Notes under the pieces: model-generated
Database searches by the model: none
Told to the model about the DNA's origin: nothing
Seen by the model: only the letters and a program-made list of their open reading frames with translations
In this document: piece by piece, positions 1 through 4,004 of the stretch
Layout of the letters: every line of letters starts with the position of its first letter
Numbering within the stretch: position 1 is the first letter of the stretch
DNA from: a virus
Virus genome (UHGV): UHGV-1597668
Length of the DNA: 16,542 nt
Strand: one strand, 5' to 3'
Translations under genes and position numbers: made by a program

Positions 1-160
1 AGACGGGGACACTCTGCGGTCGATTTTTTGACGGGGGACGACTCATACCCCGTGGCATCTGGCTTCTTAGGCCGCTACCATCATCAGATCATCGTTTGCA
101 TTTACTTTAATGGTCAGTTTCTAAACCGCCGCAAAGTCGCTAACCATGACGAAAACCCTG

Positions 161-186
161 AAAAAAACGCCCACCCGAAGATGGGC
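161..186 (-). terminator. Rho-independent terminator on the minus strand (7-bp stem, UUCG tetraloop, U7 tract)
   Basis: Minus-strand RNA reads GCCCAUC-UUCG-GGUGGGC-G-UUUUUUU (plus 169-186 stem/loop, plus 161-167 A-run). About 185 nt downstream of the dmt stop. Confidence 0.7.
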
Positions 187-347
187 AAACTGGAAGCTCG
201 TAACGCACTTCGGCGTTGCCACTTAGGCGCATGGTCAACCTGGCAACTCGGTGGTTTGTCTGGGAGGACTAGGCCCAGCCATGCTTACCGCCGCGCCTGT
301 CGCGGCTAACAGCTAAATCGCTCTATAAATCACGATTCATTGAGGCT

Positions 348-377
348 ATATTACACTAATAAATTTATTAGAGCAAT
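348..377 (-). promoter_or_regulatory. P1 C1-repressor operator-like site with overlapping leftward promoter
   Basis: Plus 361-377 AAATTTATTAGAGCAAT is the exact reverse complement of the P1 C1 operator consensus ATTGCTCTAATAAATTT (recalled from literature). On the minus strand TTGCTC (376-371) + 17 bp + TAATAT (353-348) forms a sigma70-like promoter. The site overlaps the dmt stop codon (368-370). Confidence 0.5.
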
Positions 378-2737
378 ATACCCAAAACGTCATGAGCTAC
401 ACCTCGAGTGTCTCCCTTACAAGACACAGAACGTCTGGCAAAAAGAGGTTCCACTCTGAAGCCACTGTCATGATAAAGCTCTCTGATGTTTGGCGCGCCA
501 CTGTTAGTAATGAGAACCTTTGCACCTCGACGATGAGCATCCGTCAACAGAGACACCAGGCGTTTTTGCTCTTCAAACTTAAAGTCATGACCGGAATAGT
601 TCGTGAATCCCTCTGTATTTGGAAGCGGTTCATACGGCGGATCGCAAAAGATGACATCTCCTTCTCCGGCAGCTTCAATCACCGCTGCAAAATCACCGCA
701 TACAAACTCAGACCGCCCTTCCGCACCGAGGAAGGCTTCCATCTCCTGTAATGGGAAATACGGAGTTTTATACTTCCCATAACCGACATTGAACTCACCG
801 GCCTGGTTGTAGCGCGTCAATCCGTTAAAACAATGTCGGTTCAGGAACAAAAACGCCGCTGCGCGATGTAAATCATCATAGACTTGTTTGTTAAACGCAT
901 TCCGTACTGCCAGGTATCCTTCCTGTGTGTTGTAGTCCTGGAAGAAACGATGTGCCAGAGTGATAAGTGAATGCGCCTCGCGTTGCAGAGTCTTGTAAAA
1001 GTTAATCAGGTCAGCATTCACATCATTTAGCAGATTTTCCTGGTATCCGGCATTCATGAAGACAGCTCCGCCACCAACGAAAGGTTCAATCAAGCGCTTC
1101 CCTTCTGGCAAATAGCGAAAGATTTGTTCCAGAACACCAAATTTTCCACCAGCCCATTTGAATATAGACCGTTCGAATTCTGCCGCTGGTTTAACTTTTC
1201 GCTCTTTTGTTTCACTTCCTTCTTTCTGCCGACATACGGCCTTAGTAATCTGATCGCCAATCCAGCGCATTACTGGTATTGCCATACTATTGCCGATCGC
1301 TTTGTAACGCGGTCCGTCAGCTGCAAGCATCGCGGCCTCTTCTTCGCTTAAATCTGGATAGTGATTGCGAAGATATGCCAGTTCATCTGAATTAACTTTT
1401 TTACGCTTTTCCGTAGGGATCAACGTATGCCCATCAGGAAAACCTTGCAGCCTTTCACATTCGACAGGGGTAAGACGGCGGACAGCTACTTCTGCGTTTC
1501 TTACTTCATAGCAAACAGCTGTTGGATTTTTAGCCATTAGAGATGGTGAAGTATTCTTAGTTGCAGCATGTTGTGTACCGCTCATACGCTCAGGAAAAGC
1601 CAATGTAACAAGATGCTCATGGCTTTCTTGCTCACGTGCCCGCAATGTACCATGCCCTTCTGACCAAAAACCTGCTCCTGTGCTGCTAAAAACGGCAAGA
1701 TCAGTGGCATCTTTAAAATCTCTTGCCTTTACTGTCGATGCGGTTTCATCGTCAATATATTCCCCAAATGCTGCCATCCTGAAAGCGTTTACGGCTTTCG
1801 TCGATTTCATACCGGGTGGCATGTCAGCGTGTAGGCATGGATTTAGGCTTTCGCCACTGATTGCAGCGCCATTTGCAATAATGGCGGAAGCGATTTCCTT
1901 CTTTTTTCGGCTCGGCGCAATATTCCGGCGCACGCCTTCGAACTCAAAAAGTACCGTTGCGGGATCGAGGTCTGTTCGAGCACTTGCGACAACAAACACG
2001 CATCGGCGTCGTTGTGCCACTCCGAAGTATTGGGCATCAAGGATTCTCCAGGCCACTTTTCGCTGCGGTCCATAAATACAACCACACTGCGGCCACTTTG
2101 GAGCATGGCAACCGGTTTTGATATCCCACCGCCAGAACGCGTTACTTTTTCCTGATTCAGGTCGATCACCTGGTTCGAATGGCGCATCTTCTCCAGCCAA
2201 TCCGGCAAGGAAACATCCGAAGGCGTTATCTGCCGATGACAAGACTCCTGGGACATTTTCCCAGACGATAACGGCTGGTTTGAGAAATGACTCAGCCCGT
2301 TTGTCGTCAATTGCATTTGCAAGCTCCACATACTTTAAAGTTAGCGCGCCACGCTCATCATCAAGCCCACCACGTAATCCAGCGATACTGAATGCCTGAC
2401 AGTTATGGACCACCGCACCATTGAGGATATAGGAATGATCACCTTCGACTTCTATGTTGTATACAGTATCTAGGCCTACCGATTTAAACTCTTTGACTGT
2501 TCGTAAAAGCATTCCATGAGCCAATCTTGATTTACGTGACAATTTCTGCGGGCAGATTGTTACCTGATAATAATTCCGTTGATTTACCACGCGATCCTCA
2601 ATCACTTTTTTGGGCTCAACTTCAATAAAGCTGACCGAAGAAACATAACCACAAGTCTGTGACAACTCCGCAACGCCCCAAGCAATACTCGCGGCTTCAA
2701 TTCCACTGCAAACAGATCCATAGCACAGCTCTTTCAC
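368..2737 (-). CDS. dmt: Bifunctional DNA methyltransferase: N-terminal C5-cytosine MTase domain fused to C-terminal Dam-type N6-adenine MTase domain (P1 Dmt-like)
   Basis: 788-aa ORF. C5-MTase motifs: CQAFSIAG (motif IV catalytic Cys), IVWENVPGV (ENV), [10 protein letters not shown] (motif VIII), [19 protein letters not shown] (IX), [10 protein letters not shown] (X). Dam motifs in the C-terminal ~270 aa: [42 protein letters not shown]. Start ATG overlaps the hrdC stop (ATGA), suggesting translational coupling. Confidence 0.9.
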
Positions 2738-3639
2738 TGCTTAGCCTCTCCACCAAGGGCATTTACCAGAGCATCAACCAGGCACGAAATTTCACTGGTC
2801 AACAGGAAGAAATCTGCGTCCAGTCGCTGCGCAACATCTTCACTATCAATATCAGAGTTCTGCTCAAGCAATTCATCCGCAAATTTGACGCTGGTAAGGC
2901 TGAAGTTATGGTCCAGTGTAAATTTAATGCGGTTCTGCCAGTCGAGTGCCAACTTAGTGACGAGCTTGCCAGCTTCCAGGTGTGTGGAAATTTCATCGCT
3001 TCCCAAATCCTGCTTTTTCACTCGGGCAATACCGCCATCCTCAAGCACTGCCTTAAGTTCTGCCGCATCCCCCATTTGAAATCCCTGTGGAGCACTACCA
3101 TCACGTACCCAGTCGGTCAGCGTTAATTCAATGGGATTTTCAACACTCAGGGGAACAACAGGAAGAGAACCCAGAGACTTACGCATAAGCGCGAGCATAT
3201 CCTCTGCCTGCCGCGCGCTGGCATTGATATAGATACGTTTAGTTGAACCATCGTAGATCGCCTGGATAACAGAAAACTTTGAAAAAGCCCGTGGCAGAAG
3301 AGAATGCAGAACTTCGTCTTTCAGGGAATCCTTCTCTGTTTTCTTCAGTTTACGCGCTTGTTCTTGCTCAAGTTTTTCAATTTTTTCTTGAATAGCTCGC
3401 TGGATAACCGGCGGGGGAAGAATTTTTGTTTCGCGCTTTGCTTCAACAAGGATAAAACCATTTCCATGCATAGCGATAACTTCGGAATTATCACCAAATG
3501 GCGATACAAAACCGAACTTGGCCATATCCTGACTACCGCATGGCGTGAAAAGGATCATTTTCTTTTTATCTTCTAAGTCGGTCAGATCCGCCTCACGAGA
3601 AAGTTTATAAATAGTAATGTTTTTCCAGTGCTTAAACAT
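2734..3639 (-). CDS. hrdC: RdgC-family recombination-associated protein (P1 HrdC-like)
   Basis: Near full-length similarity to E. coli RdgC as I recall it ([68 protein letters not shown]-terminal LGGEA). Start placed at internal ATG 3639 ([16 protein letters not shown], matching the RdgC N-terminus MLWFKNLMVYRLSRE) rather than the longest-ORF start at 3753. Confidence 0.9.
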
Positions 3640-3916
3640 GTTGTAACCCTTGAATATCAACCACAGAAAGCTCGTCTTTGTAGAAAAAGGCCAGGTTGTG
3701 GCCCCCCCTCGTTTGAGCGTATGAGCTGGGACCAATTTCGTTCTTCCAGACAAATGGCTTTAAATCCGTACGGCGAAGCATAAAAACGCGATTTGTTCCG
3801 CTCTGATTCCCAATGAGGCAAAAGCCTTCTTTCACCTTGATAGCCTGCAAGTTGTCGAGTTCACCGCTGGTTACACGGCTATCGAACTCCTTGCGGCTTA
3901 TTAGCTCCATCTGCAT
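3632..3916 (-). CDS. Hypothetical protein upstream of hrdC, 94 aa with this start (P1 uhr position)
   Basis: ORF in the six-frame track (3632..3988). Start chosen at ATG 3916, which has a GGAG Shine-Dalgarno 7 nt upstream; the upstream TTG/ATG starts overlap the promoter/operator region. Overlaps the hrdC start by 8 nt. No recognisable domain. Confidence 0.5.
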
Positions 3917-3987: not shown

Positions 3988-4004
3988 ATATTTATTAGAG
4001 CAAT
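3988..4004 (-). promoter_or_regulatory. P1 C1-repressor operator-like site upstream of the uhr-hrdC-dmt operon
   Basis: Minus strand reads ATTGCTCTAATAAATAT, 16/17 identical to consensus ATTGCTCTAATAAATTT. Lies in the divergent intergenic region just upstream of the leftward operon. Shares the 14-bp core TTTATTAGAGCAAT with the site at 361-377. Confidence 0.5.

Follow-up and report, generated by a model that had tools for sequence, protein, structure and literature searches.

The leader of the phage P1 ban operon contains a conserved RNA domain homologous to the 5′ domain of long-form DicF

How can a strong intrinsic terminator sit some 180 nucleotides (nt) into the leader of an operon, and what kind of RNA is made when transcription ends there? 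The question arises from a 16,542-nt stretch of the virus genome UHGV-1597668, here called the window, in which the original prediction had pointed to positions 161-377 as a candidate for a repressor-controlled non-coding transcript read leftwards from the minus strand. Judged by its sequence, this interval comprises the control region of the phage P1 ban operon together with its leader. Positions 1-600 are 99.5% identical to P1 (AF234172/NC_005856) and 94% identical to P7, and the window departs from the P1 reference in one base just downstream of the -10 hexamer and in one extra T in the U-run of the terminator. The prediction had implied a new locus; it is instead the long-known operator Op72ab/Obanab with its promoter P1ban, and both this control region and a similarity to dicF are known from the 2004 annotation of P1. 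What we add concerns the RNA. Comparison among its relatives shows that the leader contains a domain with a conserved fold, and that this domain is homologous to the 5′ domain of the long, 190-nt form of DicF from the K-12 prophage Qin.

A BLAST search with positions 140-345 against 5426 complete Escherichia coli genomes recovered, in 4421 of them, a segment about 77% identical to window 211-305, with a median of two chromosomal copies per genome and a maximum of eight. In Qin, the homologous segment is found between ydfC and dicF, and 24 nt separate its end from DicF, which means that the shared part is the region upstream of DicF and not DicF itself. A common architecture could be aligned in P1, P7, Qin, the lambdoid phages cdtI, mEp460, F1055 and pPE4, and Stx2c phages, and it recurs in copies from Escherichia, Shigella, Citrobacter, Serratia, Trabulsiella, Erwinia and Izhakiella genomes. 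The domain measures about 115 nt in lambdoid prophages, where it includes an outer helix, P0; the core found in phage P1 is about 95 nt long (306-213) and comprises three helices and a pseudoknot. Reading from its 5′ end, helix P1 is followed by the linker CGGUAAG(C/U)AUGG, helix P2 with a CU-rich loop, a junction ending in ACCACCG, and helix P3.

All of these elements can be placed on the minus strand of the window. Helix P1 occupies 290-306 (GCCGCG-ACAGG-CGCGGC; 94.9% of cells paired) and helix P2 occupies 260-278 (CUGGG-loop-CCCAG), with compensatory changes at three of its five pairs. Helix P3 spans 213-249 (GAGUUGCCA / UGGCAACGC; 96% paired, compensatory changes at six of nine pairs), and its 19-nt loop holds the motif CCAU(G/A)C. 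Within that loop, CCAUGC at 234-229 pairs with GCAUGG at 279-284, the 5′ strand of the pseudoknot, which is 100% paired in 55 distinct sequences. The two hairpins named in the original prediction are thus both present, GCCGCG-ACAGG-CGCGGC at 306-290 and GUUGCCA...UGGCAAC within 249-213, and both show compensatory changes in relatives. The conserved domain is absent from Rfam 15. As far as we have checked, its structural definition is new; the sequence similarity may already be described by Faubladier and Bouche (1994) and in the 2004 P1 genome paper.

We also observe that the loop and 3′ strand of helix P2 (260-273) are always pyrimidine-rich and anti-Shine-Dalgarno-like, with UCCUCCC in P1, UUCCUUCCCC in Qin and CUCCAUUGCUCC in other copies. 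The sequence and the length of the loop vary among copies despite this richness.

How well is the pairing of the fold kept among the copies? Across the 55 distinct domain copies, 94.3% of pair cells hold standard pairs, as opposed to 33-56% when partners are slid by one to three columns. Twelve pairs show changes on both sides, and none of 500 shuffles reaches the observed values. Compensatory differences separate even P1 from P7: U-A versus G-C in helix P2, and C-G versus U-A in the pseudoknot. Within the pseudoknot, one pair occurs as U-A, C-G or U-G, another changes from G-C to A-U (in copies L383 and L399), and one wobble is seen. Thirty-four columns are invariant across Escherichia, Citrobacter, Serratia, Erwinia, Izhakiella and Trabulsiella. 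A covariance model, R1, built from the same 55 copies and having the window sequence itself in its seed, matches window 195-337 on the minus strand with 92.3 bits (E 2.9e-29), and P7 and other P1-like copies with 95-96 bits. Covariance among relatives was one of the checks that the original prediction had proposed, and helices P1, P2 and P3 are indeed kept by compensatory change.

What does the domain correspond to in Qin? On Northern blots, Qin DicF appears as two species, of 53 and 190 nt (Ragunathan et al., 2023, doi 10.1101/2023.04.14.536235, confirming Faubladier, 1990). The 5′ end of the 53-nt form is generated by RNase E and that of the 190-nt form by RNase III; the 190-nt form accumulates upon inactivation of RNase E, and no transcript past dicF was detected (doi 10.1101/2023.04.14.536235). 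Counting 190 nt back from the 3′ end of DicF leads to positions 2484-2489 of the copy L003, 1-6 nt short of 2490, where P0 begins. Because this count ends just before P0, 190-nt DicF consists of the conserved domain followed by DicF. The homology of the P1 leader is accordingly to the uncharacterised 5′ two-thirds of 190-nt DicF and not to DicF, so P1 probably lacks a DicF-type inhibitor of ftsZ, contrary to what its annotation suggests.

The domain is regularly followed by a module and a terminator. Among 63 distinct downstream flanks, 60 contain a hairpin with a U-run 36-118 nt after the domain, measured with model column 146 and the first T of the U-run as end points (36 nt in P1); the other three are accounted for by a contig end, a miss of the detection heuristic and a decayed Shigella copy. 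At least nine types of intervening module occur, including classical DicF, DicF variants and unrelated sequences. The lambdoid terminators have a common stem base, GGCGG/CCGCC, from which module and terminator of P1 and P7 differ.

In the window, the terminator (161-187, minus strand) consists of the hairpin GCCCAUC-UUCG-GGUGGGC, which begins at 186, followed by G and U7; the hairpin has a predicted free energy of -13.7 kcal/mol, and the identical terminator is retained in P7 and D6. The textbook UUCG terminator that had been expected about 180 nt downstream was therefore found, at 186-161. Between the core and this hairpin lies the variable 3′ module (188-212, minus strand, CGAAGUGCGUUACGAGCUUCCAGUU), which according to the alignments fills the slot that the single-stranded 5′ part of DicF takes in Qin. 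At the other end, a single-sequence minimum free energy (MFE) fold places a P1/P7-specific leader hairpin at 314-339 on the minus strand (UGAAUCGU...GCGAUUUA); the P7 copy is identical. From a start near 341/340 to the U-run, the predicted RNA would be about 175-180 nt long. The original prediction had seen no convincing minus-strand open reading frame (ORF) in the interval, and we agree: those overlapping it are 24-33 amino acids (aa) long and begin with TTG or GTG. Rfam searches of the whole window at gathering thresholds yielded no family; at E<=10, positions 1-500 gave neither DicF nor C4, the sub-threshold matches being only tmRNA_permuted, nuoG, the RyhB terminator and RefB11. ARAGORN reported no tRNA or tmRNA in the window.

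How is transcription into this leader controlled? At the equivalent position, AF234172 annotates a divalent C1-controlled operator, Obanab (formerly Op72ab), that controls ban expression, with its two half-sites marked, together with a 'sigma 70 promoter P1ban' having identical -35 and -10 hexamers, a predicted P2ban, and a misc_feature 'dicF-like region' corresponding to window 151-253; the P7 record is annotated likewise, Obanb included. The operator Obana (former Op72a; 361-377, minus strand, ATTGCTCTAATAAATTT) has no mismatch, is annotated as protein_bind in P1 and overlaps both the -35 hexamer and the stop codon of dmt, the large minus-strand ORF at 368-2737 that ends with TAA at 370-368. 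This perfect operator over the dmt stop codon had been predicted, and is confirmed; it had, however, been taken for a single site, and a second one had been missed. Obanb (former Op72b; 350-366, plus strand, ATTACACTAATAAATTT, two mismatches) has the inverted orientation, shares 6 bp with Obana and lies over the -10 hexamer; the P1 and P7 records both annotate it. Allowing up to three mismatches, a search of the window returned three C1 operator sites versus 0.09 expected by chance. Binding of C1 and repression at Obanab are predicted, with support from the GenBank annotation and from the statement that ban is under C1 control. The third operator-like site lies at 3988-4004 on the minus strand (ATTGCTCTAATAAATAT, one mismatch), upstream of the rdgC-like ORF at 2734-3753 (hrdC) that precedes dmt; judged by its position and letters, it is consistent with C1 control of an hrdC-dmt operon.

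The promoter P1ban (348-376, minus strand) consists of the -35 hexamer TTGCTC at 376-371, a 17-bp spacer and the -10 hexamer TAATAT at 353-348, in the same place as P1ban of AF234172; from these elements, we infer a transcription start near 341/340. The gene ban follows farther downstream on the P1 map. Past the terminator and in the same direction, this map shows tRNA-Asn, tRNA-Thr and tciA, beyond the window (AF234172). According to an independent paper, ban is C1-controlled and is induced less than ssb, dmt and kilA. Since the two tRNA genes, tciABC and ban all follow downstream with the same orientation and ban is under C1 control, the RNA of about 180 nt would also be a leader or attenuation product, besides being a possible small RNA. 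The terminator at 161-187 does not close a gene but lies inside an operon leader, because the ban operon starts here, and the low induction of ban fits attenuation in this leader. The non-coding transcript of the original prediction consequently stands in part: operator and promoter, the structured interval, the terminator and the homology to the detected 190-nt DicF all speak for it, whereas transcription cannot simply end at the terminator. A P1vir RNA-seq paper makes no mention of ban, dmt, tRNA or dicF, and P1 is absent from a 2025 review of phage small RNAs.

We favour, with a probability of roughly 0.55, the explanation that the locus produces a C1-controlled RNA of the long-DicF type that doubles as the attenuating leader of the ban operon, and in which the 5′ domain would most likely help to fold, stabilise or process the 3′ module. 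In the lysogen, C1 bound to the bivalent Obanab (361-377 and 350-366) would block P1ban, in line with the known control. Once C1 is inactivated, RNA polymerase would start near 341/340 and make an RNA of about 180 nt, composed of a short 5′ hairpin, the core of about 95 nt (306-213) and a 25-nt single-stranded module running into the strong terminator. We envision this RNA as the P1 counterpart of 190-nt DicF, derived from its own repressor-controlled promoter rather than from an RNase III cut in a polycistronic mRNA. Most polymerases would stop at 161-167 and release the RNA; by analogy with DicF, trimming by RNase E might then yield a short RNA with the terminator hairpin that acts in trans. 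A minority of polymerases would read through into tRNA-Asn, tRNA-Thr, tciABC and ban. Among possible roles of the 5′ domain, that of a scaffold for folding, stability or processing of the 3′ module appears preferable to us. Such a scenario would account for the presence of a strong terminator 180 nt into the ban leader.

Several observations weigh against this explanation. The outer helix P0 (GUUGUGGY / RCYRCAAC) of the lambdoid copies is absent from P1 and P7, the flanks of which are unrelated, and the MFE fold of P1 offers only a weak 4-bp GCUG/CAGU closure in its place. Folded as a single sequence, the 180 nt do not recover the comparative structure, and their stability is unremarkable (z = -1.5). 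Relationships within the alignment are close, with a mean identity of 81% and an effective sequence number of 1.8. Evidence for the pseudoknot is thin, as the retrieval patterns fixed four of its six pairs. Four pattern scans of viral contigs, aimed at variants of it, returned mostly chance GC-rich matches and left eight true copies after nhmmer filtering, and five singleton pseudoknot mismatches occur in otherwise consensus-like copies. A match of the P1 3′ module to the Rfam DicF family (RF00039, gathering score 48 bits) was not found in positions 1-500 at E<=10, while the same search scored authentic DicF in K-12 Qin at 76.7 bits, so that a DicF-like function in trans is only an analogy. 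An RNAduplex comparison with ftsZ from -80 to +60 gave no signal for the P1 module and none for authentic DicF either (z = -1.0), which deprives this comparison of power. The leftward promoter of the original prediction has its hexamers at 17-bp spacing and coincides with the annotated P1ban, but only 7 of 12 positions in the hexamers agree with the sigma-70 consensus; a consensus promoter scan requiring 9 of 12 called no promoter in 1-1000, and on its letters alone the promoter does not rise above chance. Finally, size, presence, processing and target of the P1 RNA are all deduced here from the genome, and are to be read as predictions.

Might the domain instead act in cis on the polymerase? 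It could be an antiterminator, put-like in function and with an unrelated fold, whose nascent RNA would modify RNA polymerase to pass the following and later terminators; transcription from P1ban would thereby reach ban several kb on, lambdoid pL transcripts would pass the DicF terminator into dicB, kil and exo, and the ~180-nt RNA would be a by-product. Its position resembles that of putL and nutL. In a Stx2c phage, the cI stop and the cI terminator are followed by a strong pL (TTGACA-16-CATAAT, 11/12), a 270-nt leader, the domain, the first terminator and the early-left genes, and similar layouts exist in cdtI, F1055, pPE4, mEp460 and Qin. The P1 copy of the domain has P1ban on one side, a strong terminator on the other and C1-controlled genes downstream, and P1 needs a way past that terminator. 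None of nine flanking ORFs in five lambdoid contexts is annotated as an N antiterminator, and HK022 put is a precedent for an RNA doing this alone. We nevertheless consider this explanation doubtful. Searching the HK022 immunity region with R1, filters off, gave nothing at putL or putR (the best score, 7.5 bits, lies elsewhere), and each locus has one copy with no partner on the pR side. The domain is always found within 36-118 nt of a terminator and with a swappable module in between, which a processive antiterminator would not need. Moreover, the Qin Northern blots lack a transcript past dicF while terminated or processed RNAs of 190 and 53 nt accumulate, ban induction is low, and D6 retains the same terminator behind a different upstream core. 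As to a lambda-type nut site, a boxA-like motif is absent from P1 and P7, and no N family was seen among the nine flanking ORFs.

It is also improbable, in our judgement, that the RNA has no dedicated function, the interval being just the dmt 3′ untranslated region and terminator overlapped by the ban promoter, with hairpins left over from a recombined lambdoid segment. The terminator does lie downstream of the dmt stop on the same strand, the homology with D6 has its boundary at the terminator as in modular recombination, and several cryptic-prophage copies carry single unpaired changes. A passive leftover would, however, hardly maintain P2, P3 and the pseudoknot by compensatory changes, P1 versus P7 included, nor 34 invariant columns across six genera, nor the order of domain, module and terminator despite module swaps. 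The sequence of a conserved pseudoknotted domain and a variable terminator is the usual layout of a riboswitch, and in P1 we can read a potential pairing of CCGAAG (212-207) with CUUCGG (180-175) at the top of the terminator. A ligand- or factor-sensing aptamer controlling the adjacent terminator is very unlikely all the same: across module types the 3′ strand of the domain has no conserved alternative pairing with the terminators, the spacing ranges from 36 to 118 nt, no shared metabolic theme links the downstream genes, and no Rfam riboswitch matches. Hardly any credence goes to a small protein encoded in the interval. Minus-strand ORFs of 24-33 aa and one plus-strand ORF of 93 aa exist, and some P1-like records annotate a hypothetical protein here; yet the starts are TTG or GTG, the variation keeps base pairs and not reading frames, with indels in the P2 loop, and the reference P1 annotation has no coding sequence at this place.

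From a broader perspective, most E. coli genomes carry this conserved pseudoknotted fold ahead of swappable module-terminator cassettes, a hint of a general system of small-RNA biogenesis or antitermination in temperate phages. More speculatively, and only as a tentative proposal, the domain of about 115 nt may represent an undescribed class of functional phage RNA, with copies in the ban leader of P1 and P7, in the early-left operons that many lambdoid prophages carry, and so in about 80% of complete E. coli genomes. It might work as a protein-independent cis antiterminator past the small-RNA terminator that follows, with a put-like function and an unrelated fold, or it might be a scaffold for maturation of interchangeable small-RNA cassettes through RNase III and RNase E; P1 would then hold a stand-alone, repressor-controlled version.

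The cassettes display further features. In copies from Serratia (L013), Trabulsiella (L022), Erwinia (L024), Izhakiella (L025) and the Salmonella phage F1055 (L005), the hairpin holds AGGAG and then AUG or GUG; an ORF starts inside the hairpin, and the U-run is read as Phe-Phe (MFYRGTAFF...). Judging from these motifs, the hairpin may double in these five copies as a translational start-site structure. Phage D6 (L416) keeps the P1 terminator and everything downstream and differs upstream. About 200 nt upstream of its terminator (L416 2893-3016, minus strand), a P0-like helix, GUUGCGGUAAU ... CGCUGCAAC, encloses an unrelated 80-nt core with GGUAAGG and a GGGG-AUAU-CCCC hairpin, possibly a different core set into the same cassette frame. 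A boxA-like motif, GUGCUCU or GUGCGCU (CGUGCGCU or AGUGCUCU), lies 5′ of P0 in the lambdoid copies alone and is missing from P1 and P7. It is complementary to AGAGCAU or AGCGCAC (AGCGCACG or AGAGCAUC) downstream of the terminator, 60-100 nt past the model match. In L003, positions 2478-2485 would pair with 2712-2719, equivalents exist in L007 and L146, and there is one position-consistent compensatory change between the two classes. A scan for 8-mer complementarity of this bracketing helix was indistinguishable from shuffles, 48% of which reach it. Going by this complementarity, a long-range helix around the whole cassette could serve as the RNase III substrate.

Two observations concern sequences outside the leader. 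Just downstream of the terminator, positions 67-110 on the minus strand contain a frame that resembles a tmRNA tag, AAU GCA AAC GAU GAU CUG AUG AUG GUA GCG GCC UAA, which reads (N)ANDDLMMVAA*. It has no ATG, GTG or TTG start after the preceding in-frame stop, and the stretch is identical in P1, P7 and D6, although D6 differs upstream of the terminator. Region 29-197 scores 24.1 bits (E 0.005) with Rfam tmRNA_permuted, the gathering score of which is 47, and neither the window nor the P1 locus gave a tmRNA call with ARAGORN. The other observation is that Dmt has 789 aa here and 754 aa in reference P1, its N-terminal ~112 aa corresponding to window 2400-2737 on the minus strand. Residues ~77-112 (...|CQAFS) resemble C-terminal intein splicing blocks (Pfam Intein_splicing, 17.8 bits, E 0.003, below the cutoff), and the intein-like segment has HN at its end, immediately followed by the Cys of the C5-methyltransferase catalytic motif. 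This long variant is common to Ro157c2YLVW, RCS47 and the P1 of OP279344, and is not found in AF234172. By resemblance, the N-terminal segment may be a mini-intein or an intein remnant.

How does the locus compare with known systems? Its control region is the same element as Op72ab/P1ban of P1, without any difference: the same two overlapping inverted 17-bp operators and the same hexamers occupy the same place at the dmt stop. The original prediction had drawn a parallel to the c4 antisense RNA of P1 and P7 (immI), which is likewise a small structured P1 RNA tied to immunity circuitry. The c4 RNA is processed by RNase P and acts on the ant mRNA, and nothing comparable is indicated for the ban leader. 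It also resides at another locus, and a relation was rejected, as neither the whole window at gathering thresholds nor positions 1-500 at E<=10 matched Rfam C4. The HK022 sites putL and putR share with the domain that they are structured RNAs placed after an early repressor-controlled promoter and before the first terminator, with no recognisable N nearby. Homology was rejected here as well, since putL and putR, rebuilt from the HK022 genome, gave no R1 match and by eye only short shared strings; put has two stems with a triplex, as opposed to three to four helices and a pseudoknot with no homology in sequence or structure, and the domain, unlike put, is present in a single copy per genome region and always coupled to an adjacent terminator.

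The predicted P1 RNA has a relative in 190-nt DicF of Qin. Both RNAs have a homologous 5′ domain of helices P1, P2 and P3 with a pseudoknot, followed by a short single-stranded module and a Rho-independent terminator, and they are of similar size, about 180 nt in P1 versus 190 nt. They differ in that 190-nt DicF is cut out by RNase III, whereas synthesis of the P1 RNA would begin at a C1-repressed promoter of its own, and in that the P1 RNA has its own 5′ hairpin and not the lambdoid P0. The terminator stems are distinct too, GCCCAUC/GGUGGGC with no RF00039 match in P1 and GGCGG.../...CCGCC in DicF. On this comparison, the P1 RNA is best filed as a predicted new, uncharacterised member of the long-DicF kind that carries a non-DicF 3′ module.

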